Source of the DNA: a virus
Virus record (IMG/VR): IMGVR_UViG_3300030098_007087
Location: 1 to 64,000 of that record
DNA length: 64,000 bases
Strand: one strand, 5' to 3'
Program-made: the position numbers and the translations under genes
Notes under the pieces: generated by a model
What the model was told of the DNA's origin: nothing
Databases searched by the model: none
The model's input: the letters and a program-made list of their open reading frames with translations, nothing else
Shown here: positions 4,089 to 20,700 of the stretch, in pieces
Layout: each line of letters begins with the position of its first letter
Position numbering within the stretch: position 1 is the stretch's first letter

Positions 4089-6260
4089 ATGGGTTATGAC
4101 TTGCAAAAAAAATTCTTTTTCTTAAAAATTTTCTTTTTTTTAGCTGCCATTATCGGCTGCTCTGACCTGTTTGAAAATCCTTATCCCTTTCCCGGTCACT
4201 TAGATACGCAAGAAGAGCCGAAGTATGACCTGACCAATGATGCTGTTACAAACCAAGAAAACAGTCCGGGCGAACTAGAGAAAAATAATATCAACAATCT
4301 TTTCGAGTTGCAGAAACAATATCAGCAAGATTGTTACAAAACAGAATATTTTTTCTGTCCTCCATCATTATTCCTTAATGAGGTGTGGGAATTTCAACTA
4401 ATAACTGATACATGTAAAGATCCTGAAGAGGTTGTTTATAAAGGACCTTGCGAACAAAAGTTTGAATGCGATCCCGCTAACACTGAACCAGAAACAGTTA
4501 TGTGCTCTGTTCCTGTCTCAACGGGTGGTAATGCATATGGATCACAAGAAAAATGGTGTGATAAAGGTGTTTGGAAATATACAGACTGTACAATTTGCGA
4601 ACCAGAGGTATGTGACGGCTTAGATAATGATTGCAACGGGGAGATAGATGATTTACCTATTCAAGAATGCGAAAATGAATGTGGTTTAGGTGATCTAGTT
4701 TGTGTTGATGGTGAAGAGATTTGTTTCGGCGATGAACCACAAGAAGAAATTTGCGATTATAAAGATAACGACTGTGATGGTTTAATCGACGAAGGTCAAA
4801 CAAACGCTTGCGATAGTTGCGGAGACGTACCAGAAGAAGTATGTGATGGTTTCGATAACGATTGTGATGGTAAAACAGATGAAGATCTAGAACAGCTTTG
4901 CGAAACTGACTGTGAGTCAGGGCTTGAATTTTGCGTTCTTGGATCTTGGGTTGGATGCACAGCAAAAGTGCCATTCTTAGAAATATGCAATGGGTTGGAT
5001 GATGATTGCGATGGAAGCGTTGATGAGGATTTGGATTGTCTATGTACACAGCAAATGGTTGGCGCTCTTTTCCCGTGTTATGAATCTCCTCTGATTTGCG
5101 GTCAGGGATATAAAACTTGCGAATGTTTTGACGAGGACTGCGAACAAATATTTATGACCGAATGTTTTGCTATGTGTAGCTATGAAAACCCAGTTCCAGA
5201 AAACTGTGATAAATTCAAAGGGATCAATGTTAATGAGATTTGCAATAATCATGATGATAATTGTAATCAAATGATAGACGAAAACCTTTTCAAGAATTGC
5301 TACACAGGAGAACCTCAAACTTTATATGTTGGTATTTGTGTTCCCGGTGAAATGACCTGTGAAAAAGGCTCTTGGGGAAATTATTATGAAGATGGTGAAA
5401 CTTTTATAGGTGACTATTGCATGGGAGAGATTGTACCTAATGAAAAGGATGAATGTAATGGAGAAGACGATAATTGCGATGGCATTGTAGATGATGGCAA
5501 AGAATTGAAAGATACTGATATTCTTTTTATTATCGATGCATCTGGCTCCATGCAGGATGAGATTGATGCTGTGCTTGTGGCGATGAATCAATTTGCAACA
5601 TATTACAAAGACGAAGAAGTTATACAATGGGGATTGGTTATGGGACCATTTGCTCAATCAAAACCAGATACTTGGGGTAGCAATCAGGTTGTTGAGATAG
5701 TTGCAAACTTGTCTCCTTTTAGTGATTTTATTTCTGCTCTTTCTGGCGTTAATGCTGATTGGGCTACAGGTTTAGAGCCCATGTATGATATAATTTATTT
5801 ATCTTTATGGAATCTAGCTCCAACATCAGCGTTGCCATGGCCAATATCAGATTTAAGCTTTTTAGAGAACTTTGGATCTTGGAATGAGGTCTACACAGAT
5901 CCTAATCCACAAAACTTTGAAATCAATTGGAGAGATGATGCACAACATGTAGTAATAGTATTTACAGATGAGGCAGGGCAAAGTTATATATCGATGCTAG
6001 ATCAACTAAATGTACTATCATCTTTGTACCATGAAGGTATTTCTCAAAATGATTTACAGCAATTAATATCAAATTGTATAGACTTAAATGTTTATACTTT
6101 TACAAAGCCAGCACATAAAGGACCAGCATCATACATGGGCGAGCCTGCTGGATTCGAGCCCCTTACAATCTACGGTGGACAATGGTTTGAGTTAGTTAGC
6201 AATCCTGCTCAACTCTATGAGAATCTCATGCAAATTATTGATGACAACGCTTGCGAATAA
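4089..6260 (+). CDS. lipoprotein with Cys-rich (MopE-type/myxobacterial) repeats and C-terminal VWA domain
   Basis: IIGC lipobox; several E-[VI]-C-[DN]-G-x-D-[ND]-D-C-[DN]-G repeats; DILFIIDASGSM MIDAS motif and VFTDE. Confidence 0.85.
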   Translation: MGYDLQKKFFFLKIFFFLAAIIGCSDLFENPYPFPGHLDTQEEPKYDLTNDAVTNQENSPGELEKNNINNLFELQKQYQQDCYKTEYFFCPPSLFLNEVWEFQLITDTCKDPEEVVYKGPCEQKFECDPANTEPETVMCSVPVSTGGNAYGSQEKWCDKGVWKYTDCTICEPEVCDGLDNDCNGEIDDLPIQECENECGLGDLVCVDGEEICFGDEPQEEICDYKDNDCDGLIDEGQTNACDSCGDVPEEVCDGFDNDCDGKTDEDLEQLCETDCESGLEFCVLGSWVGCTAKVPFLEICNGLDDDCDGSVDEDLDCLCTQQMVGALFPCYESPLICGQGYKTCECFDEDCEQIFMTECFAMCSYENPVPENCDKFKGINVNEICNNHDDNCNQMIDENLFKNCYTGEPQTLYVGICVPGEMTCEKGSWGNYYEDGETFIGDYCMGEIVPNEKDECNGEDDNCDGIVDDGKELKDTDILFIIDASGSMQDEIDAVLVAMNQFATYYKDEEVIQWGLVMGPFAQSKPDTWGSNQVVEIVANLSPFSDFISALSGVNADWATGLEPMYDIIYLSLWNLAPTSALPWPISDLSFLENFGSWNEVYTDPNPQNFEINWRDDAQHVVIVFTDEAGQSYISMLDQLNVLSSLYHEGISQNDLQQLISNCIDLNVYTFTKPAHKGPASYMGEPAGFEPLTIYGGQWFELVSNPAQLYENLMQIIDDNACE

Positions 6261-6311: not shown

Positions 6312-7307
6312 ATGAAGGCTGATATTGTTATTGGCGCTCAATATGGTGACGAAGCAAAAGGTAAAATCGCTCACCATTTATGTAAAACCGGCGGGTACAC
6401 ACATGTTATTCGCTTCAATGGTGGTTGCAACGCTGGTCATACGATTTATCATGGTGGCAAGAAATTTATAACTCATCATATTCCTTGTGGTGTGTTTTAT
6501 GGTATTCCATCAATTATTGGACCCGGATGTGTTATCGACCCAGAAAGGTTCTTCAATGAAATTGAAGAATTAGAAAGTGCTGGAATTGCAGCAGAAACAC
6601 TTGTTTCAATCGCTAGAAATGCACATGTGATCACAAATTCCCACAGAGAAGAAGACGAAAAAGACGAAAAGATCGGCACCACAAAACGAGGAAATGGTCC
6701 AGCTTACCGTGACAAATATGCTAGAAAAGGTGTAAGGGCTGAGACGTTACCACAGTTTGAAGACTACCTTGTTGATATTTATGAAGAACTTCATTCATCT
6801 CCAAATGCTAAAATTCTTTTAGAAGGTGCACAAGGGTTTGGATTAGATATCGATCATGGAGACTACCCTTATGTGACATCATCACATTGTACATCAGCTT
6901 CAGCACTTCTTAGTGGAATTCCACCGCAATCAGTAGATAAAGTTTGGGGTGTTGCAAAGATTTATGAAACTTATGTTGGGGCTAAAAAATTTGAATCTGA
7001 TGAGGAGATTTTCAAAATTATCAGAAACATTGGGAAAGAATATGGTGCTACAACAGGAAGACCTCGACAATGTAATTGGCTGAACTGGGATTTTCTTGAA
7101 AAATCAGTAAAGATGAATGGTGTCACCGATCTTGTCCTTAACAAAATGGATGTTTTACGGCAAATTAATAAATGGTCACTAATTCATAATGACAAAAAAA
7201 TAACTTTTGATACTGAGGATAATATGAAAAAATGGATCGTGCAAAAAGCAAATCTATTACCAACTGTATCAAATGTTTATTTTTCAGGAGATCCAAATGG
7301 CTTGTGA
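6312..7307 (+). CDS. purA: adenylosuccinate synthetase (short form)
   Basis: QYGDEAKGK, NAGHT, GTTKRGNGPAY, EGAQG, GDYPYVTSS, TTGRPR, NKMD. Confidence 0.95.
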   Translation: MKADIVIGAQYGDEAKGKIAHHLCKTGGYTHVIRFNGGCNAGHTIYHGGKKFITHHIPCGVFYGIPSIIGPGCVIDPERFFNEIEELESAGIAAETLVSIARNAHVITNSHREEDEKDEKIGTTKRGNGPAYRDKYARKGVRAETLPQFEDYLVDIYEELHSSPNAKILLEGAQGFGLDIDHGDYPYVTSSHCTSASALLSGIPPQSVDKVWGVAKIYETYVGAKKFESDEEIFKIIRNIGKEYGATTGRPRQCNWLNWDFLEKSVKMNGVTDLVLNKMDVLRQINKWSLIHNDKKITFDTEDNMKKWIVQKANLLPTVSNVYFSGDPNGL

Positions 7308-8190
7308 TAGATTGGTAGGAAACACGCCCATGGTAAATGTTGCACCAAACGTTTGGGCGAAAATGGAAGCGTATAATCCTACCGGTAGTATAAAAGATCG
7401 CATGGTAAACTATGTTCTAAAGCGTGTAATAAAAGAAGGTAGAGTAAAAAAGGGCGATACGGTTGTGGAAGCTACTAGCGGAAACACCGGCATCGCTTTA
7501 TCTTTTTTTGGTCAAATTCAAGGCTTGAACGTAAAAATAATTATGCCCTCAAACATGTCCGAAGAAAGAAAGAAAATGATGAAATACTTTGGAGCAGAGA
7601 TTATTGAAGTAGATCCCGGCGATTTTGAGGGGGCTATAGATGTGCGAGATAGAATGGCTACAGAAAACGGATGGTACAATTTCAATCAGTTTCATGAGCC
7701 TTTGAATATCGAATGCCATTATGTTACAACCGGAAATGAAATAGTTAGACAAATAGAAGATATTTTTGGATTCACTGAGTATTGTCCAACCTTGATAGAG
7801 GCTATTGTGCTTGGTACAGGTACAGGTGGCACAATAATGGGCGCTGGAAAAAGAATAAAAGAAAATTATCCTAACGCTAAAATAGTTGCTGTCGAGCCGG
7901 CAGAGTCTGCTGTAATGAGTGGTGGTAAAGAAGGCTTGCATGGTATTCAAGGTATTGGCGATGGATCAAAATTTCTAGTTGATCTAGACAAAGTAGATGA
8001 AATCATTACAATTCCTACCGAAGATGCAAAGGAAAAGGCTAGACAATTAGCTAAAAAAGGTTTCTTTGTAGGAATTAGTTCTGGTGCTAATGTTTTGGCT
8101 GCTGAAAAGTGGGCTAAAAAGAATAATCCGCGAGGCTCTGTTATTACAATTCTTTGTGATCGCGGAGAAAGATATATGAGTATTCTCTAA
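7297..8190 (+). CDS. cysK: cysteine synthase (O-acetylserine sulfhydrylase, PLP fold II)
   Basis: VGNTP, KMEAYNPTGSIKDR, EATSGNTG, GTGGT, HGIQGIG, GISSG, DRGERY; start at ATG 7297 after AGGAG. Confidence 0.93.
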   Translation: MACDRLVGNTPMVNVAPNVWAKMEAYNPTGSIKDRMVNYVLKRVIKEGRVKKGDTVVEATSGNTGIALSFFGQIQGLNVKIIMPSNMSEERKKMMKYFGAEIIEVDPGDFEGAIDVRDRMATENGWYNFNQFHEPLNIECHYVTTGNEIVRQIEDIFGFTEYCPTLIEAIVLGTGTGGTIMGAGKRIKENYPNAKIVAVEPAESAVMSGGKEGLHGIQGIGDGSKFLVDLDKVDEIITIPTEDAKEKARQLAKKGFFVGISSGANVLAAEKWAKKNNPRGSVITILCDRGERYMSIL

Positions 8191-8226
8191 TCATATTTAG
8201 TTAATAGCTATTTAGCAAACAAAATA

Positions 8227-8234
8227 CTATTTAT
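8227..8234 (+). promoter_or_regulatory. putative phage late promoter CTATTTAT
   Basis: Identical octamer upstream of genes at 22258, 23301, 23818, 49483 and 61892. Confidence 0.65.
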
Positions 8235-8255
8235 TATGATTTGGAGTCTTTTTTT

Positions 8256-9101
8256 ATGCAAGATCTGAAAAAACACGTCATGTCTTTCTTTCCTTTTGCC
8301 CAAAAACAACTTGGGTTTAAGAGACCACCTAAATTATTTTTTGTTAATGACAAACAAAACGCTGGTGAAATTTTGGGAAAGACTGCTTATTACGAGCCAG
8401 AGACAGAAACTATAAAAATTTATGTTACAAATAGGCACCCCAAAGACGTGCTTAGATCTTTCTCGCATGAACTTGTTCATCATGCCCAAAACTGTCGCGG
8501 AGATTTTGATAACGACACAGTGACAGAAGAAGGGTATGCACAAAACGATCCACATTTGAGAGAGATGGAAAGAGAAGCATACGAAAAGGGAAATATGATA
8601 TTTAGAGACTATTGCGATGGTCTCACTAACAACGGAGGATTAGAACAAATGTCTATGACAGAAGATAAGCTTAGAGAAGCAGTAAGAGCAGCTATTCAAA
8701 GATTAGCAGAAAAAGGTGGTGCAAAACCAGACTTCCTTGATTTGGACAAGGACGGAGATAAAGAAGAGTCTATGAAAGATGCAGCAGCAGACGCCGATGA
8801 TAAGAAGAAAGTTGATGAGGCATCTCTTGCCGATGATCCAACTGCCGCTGAAGAGGCTGAAGCCGCAGAAAGAGCCGCAGAAGGTGGTGAATCTGAAACA
8901 AAAGTGAACGAAGAAGATGAACTGGAAGAGTCCCCATCTCACCCTGCTAGCGACAGATCTCAAGGTCGTGACACTGGTAGGAGAGTAAAGGATGTCAACT
9001 CTGGTGAGAGAAAAGAAGTTGCGGAGTCTGTTGATGAACTCAAAGAATGGTATTTAGGAACACTTTCTGAGAGCTTGATTAAAAAGTTTACACAGAAATA
9101 G
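8256..9101 (+). CDS. zincin-like metallopeptidase domain protein with acidic tail, probable virion protein
   Basis: HELVHH...EREAY; DLDKDGD EF-hand-like loop; LREAVRAAI helix. Confidence 0.75.
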   Translation: MQDLKKHVMSFFPFAQKQLGFKRPPKLFFVNDKQNAGEILGKTAYYEPETETIKIYVTNRHPKDVLRSFSHELVHHAQNCRGDFDNDTVTEEGYAQNDPHLREMEREAYEKGNMIFRDYCDGLTNNGGLEQMSMTEDKLREAVRAAIQRLAEKGGAKPDFLDLDKDGDKEESMKDAAADADDKKKVDEASLADDPTAAEEAEAAERAAEGGESETKVNEEDELEESPSHPASDRSQGRDTGRRVKDVNSGERKEVAESVDELKEWYLGTLSESLIKKFTQK

Positions 9102-9115
9102 GAGAGACGTAAATA

Positions 9116-11833
9116 ATGGGTGGATTAGCAGGACATATGTCCCATCTTTACGGAAATCCAAATCTAACTTTTAGTCAAATAAAAGATGTTTTGCAAAAGG
9201 CTTCCGAAGGTGAACTACAGGGAACAGAAAAAACAGACGGTCAGAATCTTTACATTTCTTACTCTGTAAAGGATAGTAAAGCCAAGTCTGCCAGAAATAA
9301 AGGCAACATCAAGGGCGGAGGTCTAGATGCTAAGGCTTTAGCTCAAAAATTCTCCGAACATTCAAATCCAAATCTAGTAAAAGCATTTGTAGATGCCTTC
9401 ACCGCATTTGAAAAAGCCGTAAGTATGTTTCCTGAAGAGGTACAAATAAAAATATTTGGACCCGATGCCAATATCTTTTACAATGCTGAAATACAAGATC
9501 CTCGAACAGCCAATGTCATAAACTATGACACTAAAAATCTAAATATTCATCGTGTTGGTCATGCTGAATTTGATCGCGAAACAGGCAAAGTTACTGATAA
9601 AGATGTGTCTAGTAACGCAAAAATGCTTGAAGATGCGCTTGAATCAGTACAAGATCGCATGCAAGCCGAAGAATTTGGCGTTCAAATGAATGCGTTCAAA
9701 AATTTGAAAGGCTTGGCGGACGACAAAGCTCTAAAAAGAGCACTAGATCGATTAGAAAAAGAAATTAGTGCTGAAGGTGTTAGCGACTCTCAATCAATTG
9801 GTGAATATTTGATTAGTAGAGTTGATAATATAATAAAAAACAAGGTAGATTTACCTCAACAAACTCGCAAGGAGCTTGTAAGGCGCATACTAAAGCAAAA
9901 AGGGGCAACCGTTCGTACTGTTTTAGCTACATTGCCCAAGGGGGATGAACGAATTCCTGTGGTCAGGCAGTTTATAAACGACGCCGGAATCATTATTAAG
10001 ACAGCTATTTATCCGATTGAAGACATTATTCATGACTTTTCTGTTGAAATGCTTCGTGGCTTAGAGAGTGCGTTTGTTTTGAATAGCGAAGCGGAAGTCG
10101 AAAGACTAAGAGCGGACGTTACAGATGCAATAGAAAAAATTCAAGCCTCTGGAAATGAAGATGCGATGAAGATTTTACAACAACACTTGATGAAGTTGAA
10201 AGATGTAGAGAACATTAGCACTGCTACTGAGGGCTTTGTGTTTGATTATGACGGTCACACATATAAATTTACCGGAAATTTTGCTCCCGTGAACCAAATC
10301 TTAGGTCTTTTTAAGTACGGAAGGGGTAAAGTTCCACCAATTCAGAACCTAAAAGAAGAAATTAGTAAAAAAGCAGACGTTGCTTTGTACCCCGGTGCGT
10401 TCAAGCCACCTCATAGAGGTCACTTGGCTGTTGTAAAAGCCTTGAAAAAGCAAGCAAAGAGAGTAGTGGTGCTCATTTCTAATCCAATGGGTGCAACAAG
10501 AGCGCTCCCTCTCAGTAAAACAGTAATTACAGCCGAAAAAGCTAAAGAAATGTTTGAAAAAATGCTTGGAGGCATGGCTGGAGTTGAAGTTATTATCTCC
10601 CCTGACCCTACTCCAGTAACTGCTGCCTTTCAGTATGTTGAGAATGAGCCGTCTGATGATCTTTCTGCTGCTCCGGAGGGTTCTACAGTTATTTTAGGGT
10701 GCGGAGATAAGGGAAGTGACATAGATAGATACAAAAACATCAACAAATATGCTCGTGATGACGTTAGAGTCAAGATTTTTGGCTGCCCTCTCGACCAAAA
10801 ACACAGCCCAGAGTACGTTAGATCGCTTGTAGCTGCTCCAAATATCTATAATGAGCTACCAAGTGTCAAAAAAGGGCTTGATCCATCTGATTTTCACGCC
10901 TCTGACATGCGATTAATCGCTGACTTGAGTGCAGAAGACGATGTTGCAGACCTTTTGTTCAAAGATTTTGTCCCCGATGGCGTAAATTACAAAAATATAC
11001 TCTCAACATTAGGTGTGCAAAAAAAAAGTCTTACCATGGAGTACCTATTTTCTTTGGTTGAAGAGATCTTGGATGAAAAAATGCGTACAACTAAGGCTGT
11101 GCAAGACGATTACAAAAAACAATGGCAAAATACCATTGATATGGTCAATAAGGGTCCAAATAAAAACGCTGGTGGTGGGAAAGGTCACACAAAAGGCGAC
11201 CCTGATCTAAAAAGTGCTCCACCCGGCGGCGGGGCGATGGAAGAAGAGATTGAAAACGACGAAGAAATAGTAGACGAAATATCCTCGATGGCTGGCGGTA
11301 ACGTTCAAGGCGCTGTTGGCGCTGGTGGGGGTCCGTGGCAGCACACAAATGTTGAAAAAGAGAACGAAGAAGAGAAAAAGCGTTCACAATTGAAGTTAAA
11401 AAAGGCTTTAGTCGGTGAAAAAAACAAAAAAGACCCTGCAAAAGGGACTGGAAAGAAGCCAAAGGGATCTGGAAGGCGTTTGTATACCGACGAGGACCCT
11501 TCAGATACCGTCTCTGTCAAATTTAGCACTGTTCAAGACATAAAAGACACCTTATCAAAGGCTTCTTTCAAATCAAAGTCACATAAAAGGCAATCACAAA
11601 TCATAAATTTGATTCACCAACGCGCCCGAGCGGCTTATAACAATGCAAAAGACCCAAAAGTAAAAGCTAGACTAAAAAAAGCTTATGATTACGCTAAAGA
11701 AAGGAAAGAGGCGTCAAAAAAGAAGACTCAAGCAATGAAAAACAAGAATGAAGCAGTTGATCAGTATGTTGACGAAATTCTAAACTATTTATCGGTGAAA
11801 GATACCTTTTTAGGAGAAAAAAATGCAAATTAA
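9116..11833 (+). CDS. multidomain protein: ligase-like KxDG nucleotidyltransferase + HxGH (cytidyltransferase-like) domain + basic C-terminal domain
   Basis: TEKTDGQN, EGFVF and YKFTG; YPGAFKPPHRGH...HASDMR. Confidence 0.8.
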   Translation: MGGLAGHMSHLYGNPNLTFSQIKDVLQKASEGELQGTEKTDGQNLYISYSVKDSKAKSARNKGNIKGGGLDAKALAQKFSEHSNPNLVKAFVDAFTAFEKAVSMFPEEVQIKIFGPDANIFYNAEIQDPRTANVINYDTKNLNIHRVGHAEFDRETGKVTDKDVSSNAKMLEDALESVQDRMQAEEFGVQMNAFKNLKGLADDKALKRALDRLEKEISAEGVSDSQSIGEYLISRVDNIIKNKVDLPQQTRKELVRRILKQKGATVRTVLATLPKGDERIPVVRQFINDAGIIIKTAIYPIEDIIHDFSVEMLRGLESAFVLNSEAEVERLRADVTDAIEKIQASGNEDAMKILQQHLMKLKDVENISTATEGFVFDYDGHTYKFTGNFAPVNQILGLFKYGRGKVPPIQNLKEEISKKADVALYPGAFKPPHRGHLAVVKALKKQAKRVVVLISNPMGATRALPLSKTVITAEKAKEMFEKMLGGMAGVEVIISPDPTPVTAAFQYVENEPSDDLSAAPEGSTVILGCGDKGSDIDRYKNINKYARDDVRVKIFGCPLDQKHSPEYVRSLVAAPNIYNELPSVKKGLDPSDFHASDMRLIADLSAEDDVADLLFKDFVPDGVNYKNILSTLGVQKKSLTMEYLFSLVEEILDEKMRTTKAVQDDYKKQWQNTIDMVNKGPNKNAGGGKGHTKGDPDLKSAPPGGGAMEEEIENDEEIVDEISSMAGGNVQGAVGAGGGPWQHTNVEKENEEEKKRSQLKLKKALVGEKNKKDPAKGTGKKPKGSGRRLYTDEDPSDTVSVKFSTVQDIKDTLSKASFKSKSHKRQSQIINLIHQRARAAYNNAKDPKVKARLKKAYDYAKERKEASKKKTQAMKNKNEAVDQYVDEILNYLSVKDTFLGEKNAN

Positions 11834-13849: not shown

Positions 13850-13973
13850 TCATGGAAATTGTAAACTACCAACTTTCACCTTCCATGCCTCTAACGAAGG
13901 TCGTAATGTGTTGACGAGAGGCTAGTAATGCAACCAACGAGGGGGTTGTACCTTTTTCATGATCACTTTTTTT
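13844..13973 (+). ncRNA. candidate structured RNA, family unrecognised
   Basis: 15-bp closing stem (13844-13858 with 13954-13968), internal helices and a following U-tract. Confidence 0.45.
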
Positions 13974-13974
13974 C

Positions 13975-14003
13975 TTTACTTTTCAAACATAAATCTATAT
14001 AAT
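13975..14003 (+). promoter_or_regulatory. sigma70-type promoter of the two-lipoprotein operon
   Basis: TTTACT-N17-TATAAT. Confidence 0.65.
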
Positions 14004-14040: not shown

Positions 14041-14430
14041 ATGAGAAATTTATTTATTGCAACAATGCTGGTTTTCAGCGTAGTTGGGTGTCATGAAGAT
14101 GACTGTGATGAGGCAGTAGTTGCCGAAGAAGAGGTTGCTGAAGAGGAATCTGAAGAAGCCGAAGAGGATGCTGACGCTGAAGAAGAAGCTGACACTGAAG
14201 AAGAAGCAGAAGAAGAAGCAGAAGAGTCTGAAGAAGAGGAAGCTGAAGAAGAGGAAGCTGAAGAAGAAGCCGAGGAAGAGGTGGAAGAAGAAGCTGACGA
14301 AGAAGAAGCTGACGAAGAAGAGGTAGAAGAGGAAGTCTCCGAGGAAGAGGCTGAAGAGTCCGAAGAATCTGAAGAAGATGCCGAAGAGGTTGAAGAAGAA
14401 GAGGAAGAGGACGAAGAGGAAGAAGAGTAA
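14041..14430 (+). CDS. extremely acidic low-complexity lipoprotein
   Basis: AAGGAG RBS, VVGC lipobox (Cys17), mature part mostly Glu/Asp/Ala. Confidence 0.8.
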   Translation: MRNLFIATMLVFSVVGCHEDDCDEAVVAEEEVAEEESEEAEEDADAEEEADTEEEAEEEAEESEEEEAEEEEAEEEAEEEVEEEADEEEADEEEVEEEVSEEEAEESEESEEDAEEVEEEEEEDEEEEE

Positions 14431-14453
14431 TTCATTTTAACAAAGGAGAATAA

Positions 14454-16145
14454 ATGAGAAACTTTATTATTGTATCGATGATTGCTTTTGGTTTGATTGC
14501 TTGTGAAAATACAACTGACACAACAACTGAGACTGAAGGTAAAACGACAACAACAACTTTCACAGGAGCTAGTGATAATACAACTACTACTACACCACCA
14601 GCTACTGATGAAACAACGTCTACTCCATCTACAACAACGGAAGAAAGTGGTACAAGTGCGCCCACTGAAACTGAAGGTGTAGAGGAGAATAATGAAACCA
14701 ATACGGTTCCTACTGAGACTGAGGAGGAGACCCCCCAACAGGGGTCAAATCCTTCAGACCCAGTGGAGGTAGATCCCACCAGTGATGAAGTAACCCTTGA
14801 TGATTTGACAGCAGAAGATCTTGCAGATATTGAAATTTTGCGTGACAATATTTTTTCTGGTTTAGATGTAGGCAAAGAGTTGTACTTATCACAGGTGAAT
14901 TTAGCTTTGGAAGACATCGGCTTTGATCCTGTTTATCAGTCTCTAGACAATAACCAAGAACTACCAGAAGTTTCCGATTGTCCTTATGTTGAGTTTTACA
15001 ATAATCAAGTTACAGTTGATGGGTATGAATGTGAATATCTTGTTGATAAAGCAAGGTCTGAAGCGTATTCTAAACTTTATGGAACATTAGTGGCTAATCG
15101 AGAAAACTATGACCCGGATCTTAGTGAGCAAGATTTTTGGTTTGAACAGGGCGCAGTTAGCGGTCTAGAAGAAGCAAGAGTTCTTTTTCGTGTTGATTTA
15201 AAAGCAAAACAATTTTGTAATCAAGTTCCAACACCGGTAAAAAGCTCGGAAGAAAAAGGATTGATTGTTGGACGTCAACATTTTATTAATTCTATGAACA
15301 ATTGGTTGACCACAAATGGGTATGCAGCAGATTATCCAATTATGTCCGATCCAATTGAAGTTTGCCAAGCCAACGAATCTTTATTGGACCCTGTTTATGA
15401 CGATGCTTTGAATTCCATCAGCCAAGCGATGCAAGAAAATCCACTTTGTGAAGACTATATTCCAATGGACGGTGATGATGAAATTATGTTTGCACAAGCA
15501 CAGACAGATTATAGCAACGCACTAAAAGTTGGTATTGAAGATGAGTTTGCATTAGCAGCAGTGAAAATTTTCAAAGTCGTTCCTTGCAATGTATCAGATC
15601 CATTGATTGTTGATGTAAATAAAAATGGAAAATTTGATGTCACTACTATTGAAAATGGCGTCAATTTTAGCTTTACCGGGACTCGTTCACAAGCAACTGC
15701 TTGGCTAAGTGGTGATGGATTTCTTTTTCATGATAGGAACTCAAATGGTGTTGTTGATAATGGCACCGAGCTTTTTGGAACAGATCGATCTTTCAATGGT
15801 GGCTTTACACATTTAGCTCATTTCGATTCAGATAAAAATGGAGTAATTGATCATAAAGATGATGTATACAAGAGTCTTTTTGTTTGGGTTGACACAAACA
15901 TGGACGGCGTTTCAACTAAAGACGAGGTGACAACCTTGCTCAAAGTTGGCGTTATGAATATTGATGTTGTGGCACAAAGTTACAATAAAAGTGTAAATGG
16001 TAATTTAATTAAGAAAGTTTCATATGGTACATTTAATAACGTAACTAAACAAACCCTTATTGGGGATGTGGATTTACGAACCGGTGTTTGGAATAAGCAG
16101 GGCACCGATCTTACCCCCTCTACTACAGAGGAAGAGCGAAACTAA
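14454..16145 (+). CDS. lipoprotein with Thr-rich stalk and C-terminal FrpC-like self-processing (Ca2+-binding) module
   Basis: LIAC lipobox (Cys17); D382-P383 followed by LIVDVNKNG...TAW...DGFLFHDRNSNGVVDNGTELFG...DSDKNGVID...VWVDTNMDGVS. Confidence 0.85.
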   Translation: MRNFIIVSMIAFGLIACENTTDTTTETEGKTTTTTFTGASDNTTTTTPPATDETTSTPSTTTEESGTSAPTETEGVEENNETNTVPTETEEETPQQGSNPSDPVEVDPTSDEVTLDDLTAEDLADIEILRDNIFSGLDVGKELYLSQVNLALEDIGFDPVYQSLDNNQELPEVSDCPYVEFYNNQVTVDGYECEYLVDKARSEAYSKLYGTLVANRENYDPDLSEQDFWFEQGAVSGLEEARVLFRVDLKAKQFCNQVPTPVKSSEEKGLIVGRQHFINSMNNWLTTNGYAADYPIMSDPIEVCQANESLLDPVYDDALNSISQAMQENPLCEDYIPMDGDDEIMFAQAQTDYSNALKVGIEDEFALAAVKIFKVVPCNVSDPLIVDVNKNGKFDVTTIENGVNFSFTGTRSQATAWLSGDGFLFHDRNSNGVVDNGTELFGTDRSFNGGFTHLAHFDSDKNGVIDHKDDVYKSLFVWVDTNMDGVSTKDEVTTLLKVGVMNIDVVAQSYNKSVNGNLIKKVSYGTFNNVTKQTLIGDVDLRTGVWNKQGTDLTPSTTEEERN

Positions 16146-16167: not shown

Positions 16168-16200
16168 AGCGGGGGAGTCCTTCCCCCGCTTTTTCTTTTT
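16168..16200 (+). terminator. Rho-independent terminator
   Basis: AGCGGGGGA/TCCCCCGCT stem followed by a T-run. Confidence 0.85.
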
Positions 16201-17042: not shown

Positions 17043-18185
17043 ATGGAAGATTTAGACATACCATCATTAGATATTGAAGATTTTGATATGGAAGAAGCTG
17101 CCGCAGCAAAAACAGATGAAATTGAAGATGAATCAGGAGGTGCACTAACATACGCAATTATTGGTTCTGGGCAAGGTGGTGGTCGTATCGCCAAAGCATT
17201 TTATGATTTGGGATATAAAAAGACTGTTGCTATTAATACAGCCAAATCAGATTTAGCGCTGCTGGATCTTCCTGATAATCATAAGTTCCATTTGGATTGT
17301 TTCGGTCAGCAAGGGGCTGGTAAAAATCAGGAAAAATCAAAAGAGGCGTTTGAGCTAAAGGGTCAAGAAATTTTCAATAAACTCAGAGAAGTGTTTGGCG
17401 AAAAAATTGATCGTATTTTGATTTGTGTTGGAGCCGCAGGAGGAACCGGGGGAGGAAGTGTATTGCCCTTGGTTGATATTGCAAAAAGATATTTTACATA
17501 TGTAGGAAAAGAGGATGCATCTGAGCGTGTTGGCGTCATCGCATCGTTGCCAACCAGTGGAGAGTGTGCGTCACCAGTTGTGGCAAACAATGCATATAAT
17601 AGAATTCAATCTCTCTGTGCTAGTGCTGCTAATGGTGATTTTGCTCCCCTTGTAATGATTGATAACGATAAGATTAAAAAACTATATCCCAAATTGACTG
17701 TGAAGAAGTTCTGGCCTACGCTAAATAACACAATCGCTGGTTTGTTTCATGTCTTCAATCTTCTTGCAACTAAAAACTCTGATTATACTACTTTTGACCC
17801 AGCAGACTATGACACTGTTATGAAAACAAAAGGTTGTATGATTTTTGGCGTTACAACAGTAAAGGATGTTGAGCATGAAACTTCTATCGCGACAGCTTTG
17901 AAGAGTAACCTTGAAAAGACTCTTTTGGCAACCGGGTTCGATTTGACAACCGCTCAAGGCACAGCCTGTGTTGTTGTTGGAGGAACAACCATTTATGAAG
18001 AGGTTGCAGGTCTCATGGACTCTATCGAATATGGCTTTGATACGCTGGCAGCTATTACTGGTGGCGCAGTTGTTCATAGGGGTATATACGAAGACCCAAA
18101 AAAGGATAAATTAGTCGCTTATACAATGGTAGGTGGGCTAGATGCACCGGCAAAAAGACTAGAAGAACTGCGTAAGTTTCTATAA
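17043..18185 (+). CDS. tubulin/FtsZ-family GTPase (TubZ/PhuZ-like)
   Basis: IIGSGQGGGRI, AINT, GAGK, GAAGGTGGG signature, IDND, FDPADY T7-like loop. Confidence 0.92.
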   Translation: MEDLDIPSLDIEDFDMEEAAAAKTDEIEDESGGALTYAIIGSGQGGGRIAKAFYDLGYKKTVAINTAKSDLALLDLPDNHKFHLDCFGQQGAGKNQEKSKEAFELKGQEIFNKLREVFGEKIDRILICVGAAGGTGGGSVLPLVDIAKRYFTYVGKEDASERVGVIASLPTSGECASPVVANNAYNRIQSLCASAANGDFAPLVMIDNDKIKKLYPKLTVKKFWPTLNNTIAGLFHVFNLLATKNSDYTTFDPADYDTVMKTKGCMIFGVTTVKDVEHETSIATALKSNLEKTLLATGFDLTTAQGTACVVVGGTTIYEEVAGLMDSIEYGFDTLAAITGGAVVHRGIYEDPKKDKLVAYTMVGGLDAPAKRLEELRKFL

Positions 18186-20430: not shown

Positions 20431-20700
20431 ATGTTTAAACAATATATTTTACTGACAGTGTTATTCATGTTGCTATCTTTTACCTTGATATCTGGTTGTG
20501 TTAAAGAAAAAATTAGTATTAAAAAAGACATCATTGTAGATGTTTTAGAGAGGGTACCTGAAAAAAATGAAAATGTAAAGCCCTCTTATACAGAAAACAA
20601 TTTCGATATCCATATATTTACTAATGAAGATGTGAGAAATAAAACAGTTCCTTGCTATTTCTGGACAGTTAAAAATACTCAACTTGAGATTTTGAAATAG
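20431..20700 (+). CDS. small putative lipoprotein
   Basis: AGGAG RBS; hydrophobic signal ending LISGC. Confidence 0.6.
   Translation: MFKQYILLTVLFMLLSFTLISGCVKEKISIKKDIIVDVLERVPEKNENVKPSYTENNFDIHIFTNEDVRNKTVPCYFWTVKNTQLEILK

Follow-up and report, generated by a model that had tools for sequence, protein, structure and literature searches.

Why would a phage carry a self-processing module (SPM) of the FrpC class at the end of a lipoprotein, and what might it use the module for? In the known SPM proteins, the module lies within a large protein secreted by a type-I system, with repeats-in-toxin (RTX) repeats after it (PMC7078468). The question is raised by an open reading frame (ORF) found in the first 64 kb (hereafter, the window) of the 119.6-kb IMG/VR virus record IMGVR_UViG_3300030098_007087, a record estimated to be 66% complete. 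The product of this ORF will be called the SPM lipoprotein. Its homology makes it nearly certain that its C-terminal domain is a genuine and complete SPM.

The C-terminal module and the protein that carries it

The original prediction had described a lipoprotein with a Thr/Glu-rich stalk, a Cys-containing helical domain and a C-terminal module of the FrpC type. The layout obtained in this work is the following:

14454..16145, + strand: SPM lipoprotein ORF (P0001), 563 aa plus stop
14454..14504, + strand: signal peptide with lipobox L-I-A-C, Cys17 being the predicted lipidated residue (from the sequence pattern)
14505..14795, + strand: disordered Thr/Glu/Pro-rich stalk, residues 18-114
14796..15596, + strand: helical "head" domain, residues ~115-381, ending in the junction P-C-N-V-S
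15597..15602, + strand: Asp382-Pro383, predicted scissile bond, codons GAT CCA
15600..16088, + strand: self-processing module, residues 383-545, predicted leaving group
16089..16145, + strand: short C-terminal tail, residues 546-563, and stop

We have searched all PDB chains with phmmer and obtained just two matches, both to its C-terminal part (query residues 381-538): 6sjw_A (E 1.4e-20) and 6sjx_A (E 2e-20). Both entries are structures of the FrpC SPM, 6sjx being a mutant with Ala at the position of the scissile-bond Pro (P415A). Structure comparison gave the same result. Foldseek retrieved 6sjw/6sjx at E 8.8e-9 and 1.5e-8, with probability 1.00, TM scores (target) of 0.68 and 0.71 and an identity to the FrpC SPM of ~33%. 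In VIA-align, 144 residues could be superimposed on the FrpC SPM with Z 19.6 and a root-mean-square deviation of 1.9 A, whereas the next chain reached only Z 7.3. The domain has the SPM fold, reported as a novel combination of two perpendicular beta-sheets and a helix-turn-helix (PMC7078468), and its agreement with FrpC goes well beyond chance. The domain name rests on precomputed Pfam 38.1 labels, which assign PF26745 ("SPM") to the protein and its homologues. A Pfam-A copy without PF26745 gave EF-hand_6 alone, at E 0.19, NCBIfam gave nothing meaningful, and the sole PHROG match, phrog_3677, lay over the SPM part.

The functional residues named by Kuban et al. 2020 (PMC7078468) were mapped by hand through the phmmer alignment:

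D382-P383: FrpC D414-P415
D387/N389/N391/G392 and D421: FrpC D419/D421/D423/G424 and D456 (calcium site)
D427...E439: FrpC D462...E474 (calcium site)
D458...D469: FrpC D499...D510 (calcium site)
D480...E491: FrpC D521...E532 (calcium site)
W417/W478: FrpC W451/W519, the T-shaped pair
L440, G442 and G450: FrpC port residues L475, G477 and G491
D538: FrpC D579
T443: at the position of FrpC D478

Conservation was assessed in two alignments, A1 (33 sequences, 37-93% identity) and the wider A3 (23 rows, including bacterial relatives). Asp382-Pro383 was invariant in both (33/33 and 23/23 rows). In A1, the first and last residues of each calcium loop, both Trp residues and D538 (33/33) were also invariant; in FrpC, the D579A substitution abolished cleavage (PMC7078468). 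The position that departs from FrpC is that of D478, a ligand of a transient fifth calcium site, where D478A slows FrpC strongly and D478N moderately (PMC7078468). Judged from the sequence, we regard Thr443 at this position as a caveat and not as a disqualification. The residue following E-[LF]-F-G in 70 wider SPM loci (Asn 55 times, Thr 19 times) was left unused, such counts being circular since the fetch pattern demanded T/N.

The residue preceding the scissile Asp is Ser. At this position Asp, Gly or Pro is reported to nearly block cleavage, the native FrpC residue being Tyr (PMC7846742). The phage module equals in length FrpC 414-591, a fragment reported to cleave, though more slowly than longer constructs. 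By analogy with FrpC, the SPM of the phage lipoprotein is quite probably competent for cleavage.

The remainder of the protein has the character of an exported lipoprotein. The N-terminus, MRNFIIVSMIAFGLIAC, presents a basic n-region and a hydrophobic core followed by the lipobox, where L-I-A-C17 matches the pattern [LVI][ASTVI][GAS]C and Cys17 is invariant (33/33 rows of A1). The 97-residue stalk contains 34 Thr (35%) and 17 Glu (18%), with T+S+P+E+D+N+G accounting for 88% of its residues. AlphaFold2 gave a local confidence (pLDDT) below 50 over residues 1-118, and the stalk varies in length and sequence across A1. The head, a predicted bundle of long helices, has six Cys that are invariant in A1 (C176, C193, C255, C304, C332 and C378) and, when modelled alone, folded into eight helices with a pLDDT of 81.5 and a pTM of 0.80. 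The head is followed by the scissile bond within the junction P-C-N-V-S-D-P, which is invariant in the 33 rows of A1. At the other end, residues 543-563 had low pLDDT and the tail is variable or absent among the A1 relatives.

Searches for structural relatives of the head returned little. Its sequence profile had 0 matches among PDB sequences. The head alone gave a best Foldseek E of 0.28, which is uninformative, and a best VIA-align Z of 7.9 to generic helical membrane proteins. With the full-length model, Foldseek found the SPM only and the best VIA-align match to the head was at Z 7.3; an Atlas search with the head, SPM clusters excluded, gave nothing usable. The absence of matches in these searches does not show the head fold to be new.

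Neither GGxGxD nor GxGxD motifs occur in the SPM lipoprotein, and Pfam gave no HemolysinCabind match in it. The module is followed by just 18 residues, leaving no room for a type-I secretion signal region, and no type-I secretion genes were present among the ten proteins scanned around the gene. Since it has neither RTX repeats nor a type-I secretion signal after the module, the SPM lipoprotein is best classed, from its sequence, as an SPM-domain protein outside the clip-and-link RTX class. The parts listed in the original prediction were all recovered: the lipobox, stalk and Cys-containing helical domain, the Asp-Pro codons aligned with FrpC D414-P415, the FrpC-type module with its functional residues except D478, and the lack of RTX repeats.

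Relatives in bacteria and phages

The protein belongs to a small family. A search of 5.8 billion clustered proteins yielded 130 homologues at E <= 0.001, and the 120 listed were mostly 540-570 aa long and came mainly from marine metagenomes. An exhaustive search of 1.84 billion representatives with the head alone retrieved 65 proteins, and in 40 of these the SPM directly follows the head. In five of the 65 (P0139, P0165, P0170, P0172 and P0175), the SPM is missing and the chain terminates with C-x-x-G-P at the position of the junction. These SPM-less heads are a natural form with a conserved C-terminus of its own.

Among GTDB genomes, full-length relatives were found at ten loci of metagenome-assembled genomes (MAGs), with 34-44% identity over most of the protein. 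They are collinear with the phage protein in A3, from signal, stalk and six-Cys head to the P-C-N-V-S-D-P junction and the SPM. The MAG titles read Myxococcales, Myxococcota, Deltaproteobacteria or proteobacterium, and the neighbouring genes are cellular (Ser/Thr kinase, TetR, CpeT, mannosyltransferase). Of 201 genomes sampled from the phylum to which the MAG with locus L016 belongs, 6 were matched by the head profile; the family is therefore rare even in that phylum. Matches to the SPM only are widespread, with at least 518 stretches in, for example, Massilia, Acidobacteriota, Campylobacter and Lachnospiraceae. Many SPM homologues in the wider set of loci from Acidobacteriota and other bacteria (L022-L091) have Ser-Pro or Thr-Pro in place of the Asp-Pro at which cleavage would be expected; of the 67 motif matches in this set, x-S-P was the commonest form and x-D-P occurred 10 times.

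On the viral side, relatives of the full-length SPM lipoprotein were present on 10 further IMG/VR contigs of 35-267 kb, at 45-67% identity. In a 44-row tree, built without the truncated L011, the ten viral rows formed one clade (SH-aLRT 99) nested among bacterial and unlabelled rows, although the 24 unlabelled rows might conceal further captures. This topology fits the capture of a bacterial gene by phages, a single capture being enough for this sample. Based on these sequence comparisons, we regard the SPM lipoprotein as a phage-borne copy from a small family of bacterial lipoproteins, seen in Myxococcota-type MAGs, rather than as a phage invention. These phages probably have hosts other than the MAGs found, since the GC content is 35-42% in the phage loci vs 53-66% in the MAG loci.

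The gene neighbours of the SPM lipoprotein differ in most related phages. In a 267-kb related phage (L010), another secreted protein of 563 aa is encoded downstream of it (7681-9372, + strand); this protein has MopE-type putative metal-binding motifs (PF11617, E 1e-8), a motif typical of Myxococcota-style envelope proteins. In the phage collection, the only other match was MT835772.1, an unverified gut "Bacteriophage sp." record. Its protein (L099, 2090-5425) exceeds 1112 aa and combines an SPM (V-D-P-L-V-L-D) with RTX-like GGxGxD repeats after it. We have rejected it as a case of the same architecture, as it is a classical large protein with SPM and RTX-like repeats.

The gene is under strong purifying selection. 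For the closest phage pair, the ratio of nonsynonymous to synonymous substitution rates (dN/dS) rose from 0.016 in the head to 0.034 in the SPM and 0.11 in the stalk. Stalk values spanned 0.11-0.28 and those of the gene 0.02-0.3; these ratios come from close pairs only, several pairs being saturated (dS undefined) and the head dS of 2.0 for L003-L004 lying near saturation.

Head and SPM have not always travelled together. The window protein P0001 and P0016 share 82% identity in the head and 49% in the SPM, and P0056 and P0077 share 85% and 50%, respectively; conversely, P0077 and P0068 share 61% in the head vs 80% in the SPM. In separate trees, three SPM types (supports 97, 92 and 99) were scattered over head clades with supports of 100, 99 and 96, and the starred branches of the head tree forced at least 3 changes for one SPM type. 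As the types were defined by SPM similarity, their monophyly on the SPM tree is circular, and the test lies in the conflict with the starred head-tree branches. Since the two histories are discordant, the sequences indicate that phage heads have exchanged their SPMs at, or close to, the invariant P-C-N-V-S-D-P junction. Such swapping is what would be expected of a generic leaving group.

A candidate partner, the proposed mechanism and its alternatives

The bacterial relatives suggested a binding partner for the head. Five of the ten bacterial loci have, immediately after the head-SPM gene, a gene for a lipoprotein with Big_7 immunoglobulin-like (Ig) domains and a PQQ/BamB-type beta-propeller. 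In two further MAGs, a second head-SPM paralogue adjoins a propeller gene that is 46-47% identical, the first copy being without it. We have modelled the complex for a cognate pair from one MAG, using head residues 103-381 and residues 120-645 of the propeller protein. The interface score (ipSAE) was 0.70 (0.70, 0.72 and 0.69 in three runs) and the best of 3 controls scored 0.00. The runs agreed in at least 94% of their contacts, with a partner pLDDT of at least 87. The score mark applied is reached by 58 of 80 solved complexes and by 2 of 110 mismatched pairs, a calibration that holds only roughly here, since our own alignments were used. A pass through memory of a solved complex is unlikely, because the head has no PDB relative. 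The model supports the binding of the bacterial head to the Ig-propeller lipoprotein. The predicted interface is formed by a conserved helix (residues 191-210 in the phage protein) that follows the second Cys and sits on the top face of the propeller; the core of this helix (E194, Y195, D198, Y205, S206 and L208) is kept in the phage clade.

The original prediction had proposed stapling to envelope proteins in general. Because of the bacterial operon pairing and the complex model, a specific host envelope protein would be a better-grounded target. That this target is a propeller-type lipoprotein of the host is a tentative proposal, which we consider rather doubtful for the phage protein.

How could such a protein work? 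The precursor would leave the cytoplasm unfolded, via Sec, and its lipobox suggests that it would be lipidated at Cys17. Seawater contains calcium at ~10 mM. The FrpC SPM is unfolded without calcium, a property that would suit Sec export, and it binds calcium with a dissociation constant (Kd) of ~150 uM (PMC7078468). Outside the cytoplasm, where calcium would far exceed this Kd, the module would, as in FrpC and in the engineered binder-SPM fusions known as NeissLock, fold around four calcium ions, and folding would strain and then break the Asp382-Pro383 amide. The SPM (residues 383-563, ~20 kDa) would diffuse off, and an aspartic anhydride at residue 382 would stay on the lipid-anchored stalk and head. 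The original prediction had likewise placed the reactive group on the anchored fragment, and by FrpC chemistry the anhydride would indeed be on the N-terminal, Cys17-bearing part. The anhydride could then be hydrolysed, react with a Lys of the head itself or form an isopeptide bond with an amine of a docked partner. In NeissLock, efficient ligation needs prior non-covalent docking, with lysines up to ~14 A being tolerated (PMC7846742, PMC12538545). The bacterial relatives suggest that the bound protein would be an Ig plus beta-propeller (BamB-like) lipoprotein encoded by the host, which the phage copy would lock onto or block during infection.

By analogy with these systems, the reading that we lean towards, by a small measure, is that of a phage-borne copy of a bacterial envelope lipoprotein that would act as a natural "binder-SPM" probe, cleaving itself and locking onto or blocking a host protein. 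Taken alone, functional ligation to another protein seems to us a nearly balanced matter, tilting towards the negative. Any benefit to the phage, such as superinfection exclusion or envelope remodelling, is a guess.

Several points weigh against this binder-SPM reading. The fifth-site Asp of FrpC is replaced by Thr443, and by Asn in the bacterial relatives of A3. Half of the bacterial loci have no propeller neighbour. The complex was modelled for a bacterial pair and not for the phage protein, and it yields no distance between Asp382 and a Lys. At the predicted interface, the bacterial and phage heads are identical at 6 of 15 residues, no better than the overall head identity of 46%. No propeller partner was found in the phage record and 5 related ones (37-78% complete), where the search gave one weak match (E 0.002, 116 residues); as these records are incomplete, absence from the whole genomes is not proven. 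Without a propeller gene in the phage records, any such partner of the phage protein would be encoded by the host, which is an assumption. Finally, calcium-rich seawater may trigger the module before the head docks, favouring hydrolysis.

This last point leads to an alternative to which we grant a real though minor chance, namely that the protein clips without linking. The SPM would then be a self-removing C-terminal pro-domain whose task is to hold the head in an inactive or export-competent state up to its arrival in a calcium-rich compartment. The anhydride would be hydrolysed, and the mature lipoprotein would act non-covalently. Hydrolysis is reported as a normal fate of the SPM anhydride, the reported Kd of ~150 uM means that at seawater calcium the module may fire on export, and the five SPM-less representatives among 65 imply that the head can function without a ligation module. 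However, the SPM directly follows the head in 40 of the same 65 proteins, the junction P-C-N-V-S-D-P is invariant, and a simple pro-domain would have no need of anhydride-forming Asp-Pro chemistry; moreover, a conserved operon partner with a model-supported interface fits proximity ligation. The anhydride might instead attack a Lys of the same head, giving a stabilising lariat, or one of a neighbouring copy, giving a cross-linked lipoprotein layer. Intramolecular cyclisation is reported for engineered binder-SPM fusions (NeissLock), and the N-terminal fragment contains 11 Lys, among which K268 is invariant in A1 (33/33) and kept in 22 of the 23 rows of A3. Yet no conserved Lys lies near the C-terminus of that fragment in the sequence, K371 and K374 varying across the bacterial rows of the 23-row alignment, and we hold self-reaction to be improbable.

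Two further explanations appear weaker still. A lipoprotein anchored in the outer membrane, with a long (~97-residue), flexible stalk and a reactive C-terminus, could span the periplasm and acylate the free amine of a diaminopimelate of peptidoglycan, given that anhydrides are reported to react with alpha- and epsilon-amines generally; it would then be an enzyme-free analogue of Braun's lipoprotein. Such a peptidoglycan tether is very improbable, as the conserved structured head and the predicted protein partner would be superfluous and Pfam-A/NCBIfam scans of the SPM lipoprotein found no peptidoglycan-binding domain. Nor do we give more than a slim chance to an inactive passenger, that is, a recently captured bacterial gene useless to the phage or an SPM dead through the Thr at the D478 position. 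The T443 replacement and the different gene neighbours in most related phages would agree with it. In contrast, the gene has stayed intact in no fewer than 11 phage loci despite divergence to 45% identity, with dN/dS of 0.02-0.3, and the other mapped functional residues are all invariant in A1. In addition, the bacterial relatives have Asn at this position, and D478N FrpC is reported as only moderately impaired (PMC7078468).

Genomic setting, known systems and significance

The SPM lipoprotein gene is preceded by a second lipoprotein gene. The elements around the two are:

13929-13950: terminator-like hairpin just upstream of the promoter-like site
13975..14003, + strand: promoter-like site TTTACT-17-TATAAT (10/12 consensus matches, consensus scan)
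14041..14430, + strand: polyanionic small lipoprotein, 129 aa, first cassette gene
16168..16200, + strand: strong terminator-like hairpin (16168-16190; 10-bp stem, 7 G-C pairs) and T-run, closing the cassette

Both genes have the same ribosome-binding site (AAAGGAGAAT) and similar signal peptides, that of the polyanionic lipoprotein being MRNLFIATMLVFSVVGC. Lying between promoter-like and terminator-like sites, they form a two-gene, moron-like cassette. The mature polyanionic lipoprotein has 112 aa, with 71 Glu, 10 Asp and zero Lys/Arg; having neither Lys nor Arg, it offers the anhydride no amine to attack. Among 11 phage loci, 6 (the window, L002, L003, L004, L006 and L008) have a counterpart of this gene immediately ahead of that of the SPM lipoprotein; none was found in 12 bacterial loci screened for ORFs with at least 33% acidic residues. 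A role of this protein as a local calcium buffer is speculation. It would have a place in a bolder scenario that we consider unlikely, in which marine phages would deploy a one-shot covalent "stapler". Once exported into calcium-rich surroundings, the SPM lipoprotein would dock through its head on a propeller lipoprotein of the host or on the phage's own receptor complex, fire its SPM and weld itself irreversibly to that protein; the amine-free polyglutamate lipoprotein, with its 81 charges, would serve as a calcium sponge that times the trigger, and the SPM would be a swappable leaving group. If true, this would be the first natural viral proximity-ligation weapon against the host envelope, giving for example permanent superinfection exclusion.

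That the gene lies in a phage, as the original prediction assumed, is supported by the phage genes of the window and by the ten related viral loci. Nearly all ORFs of the window are on one strand, and they encode a tail fibre, a baseplate wedge protein, a ClpP-type head maturation protease and PhoH, together with a DNA methyltransferase and glycosyltransferases; four tRNAs are also present. The window belongs to an uncultured marine phage that is myovirus-like. No close cultured phage was found, the best PhoH match among cultured phages being 39% identical. The DNA stretch recurs in marine metagenomes of three studies (shares 0.73-0.98), of which three runs may be its source, and DNA set X4 has contigs identical to it over long pieces. 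In the marine metatranscriptome X20, a 276-nt contig covers 15876-16149 with 12 differences and a second contig, of 241 nt, covers 14233-14448 with 10 differences; metatranscriptome X21 gave pieces of the GAA-rich repeat only. These RNA-library contigs come from relatives and do not establish transcription of this gene, and the high depth at 14216-14452 reflects low-complexity cross-matching.

Other genes of the window deserve mention. A 331-aa protein (6312-7307, + strand) matches phrog_1211 at E 1.2e-74, a PurZ-type adenylosuccinate-synthetase-like family annotated for 2-aminoadenine synthesis; 2-aminoadenine may replace A in the DNA of this phage. A tubulin/FtsZ-like GTPase with a GGGTGGG-type signature (17043-18185, + strand) matches phrog_17961 weakly; tblastn gave zero matches to it in 50,697 phage records, and its conserved counterpart in phage locus L002, a related one, is 78% identical. 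Two more ORFs (4089-6260 and 20431-20700, both + strand) start with a lipoprotein-type signal ending in a lipobox Cys. Hence, the window encodes at least four putative lipoproteins.

The SPM lipoprotein can be compared with several known envelope proteins. The lipoprotein Llp of phage T5 excludes superinfecting phages by blocking the receptor FhuA, and to our knowledge the phage exclusion lipoproteins known so far bind non-covalently. The protein described here resembles Llp in being a phage-encoded envelope lipoprotein, here set in a moron-like cassette, but the two have no sequence relation and an exclusion role for the SPM lipoprotein is a guess. In Braun's lipoprotein, Lpp, it is the C-terminal Lys that L,D-transpeptidases link to peptidoglycan. 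Both would be envelope lipoproteins attached covalently through a C-terminal residue, as proposed here for the phage protein, whose bond, unlike that of Lpp, would be made without an enzyme via an Asp anhydride.

Closest in domain is the FrpC/ApxIVA class. The phage protein shares with it a homologous domain of the same fold, the aligned Asp-Pro, four EF-hand-like calcium sites, the Trp pair and the C-terminal Asp. It differs in being a phage-borne, Sec-type lipoprotein of 563 aa with a C-terminal SPM and no RTX repeats, in its ~33% identity, and in having Thr at D478 and Ser at the -1 position, which is Tyr in FrpC. Closest in function is FrpD:FrpC(1-414) of Neisseria meningitidis, together with the engineered NeissLock probes. 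In this bacterium, once FrpC has been clipped, its anhydride-bearing fragment is bound by FrpD, a lipoprotein of the outer membrane (PMC5233953), which gives a lipid-anchored assembly with a reactive C-terminal Asp linkable to another protein (PMC5233953, PMC7078468). The Neisseria assembly consists of two non-covalently joined proteins, whereas the phage protein would have the anchor and the reactive part in one chain. No similarity to FrpD or to the FrpC N-terminus was detected, the PDB phmmer search listing SPM matches only. NeissLock likewise combines a binder, an Asp-Pro and a C-terminal SPM as leaving group, with ligation after docking (PMC7846742, PMC12538545); it is a laboratory design using the FrpC/FrpA SPM, while the phage protein is natural and lipid-anchored, with a partner that is only predicted.

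The original prediction knew of no described phage system of this kind. This held for the literature, since full-text searches found no paper describing SPMs of phages or of lipoproteins, but not for databases, as these viral proteins already carry the SPM label in Pfam 38.1. What is known is the domain and its chemistry (FrpC, FrpA and ApxIVA); what differs is the deployment, namely a Sec lipoprotein with a C-terminal SPM and no RTX repeats that is phage-borne and has a dedicated partner in its bacterial relatives. In PMC7078468, the SPM is treated as the hallmark of a type-I-secreted RTX subclass; its natural targets and purpose are unclear even for FrpC.

The layout of the SPM lipoprotein is the arrangement that protein engineers reached for NeissLock. 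The bacterial head-SPM protein and its propeller neighbour form a small two-protein system in which natural clip-and-link ligation and its specificity could be studied directly. That phages have retained and spread the gene, and reshuffled its module, suggests that it serves them in infection. Should it do so by covalently blocking an envelope protein of the host, this would represent a new kind of phage-host interaction, and would provide protein engineers with a variety of SPMs that are C-terminal by nature.

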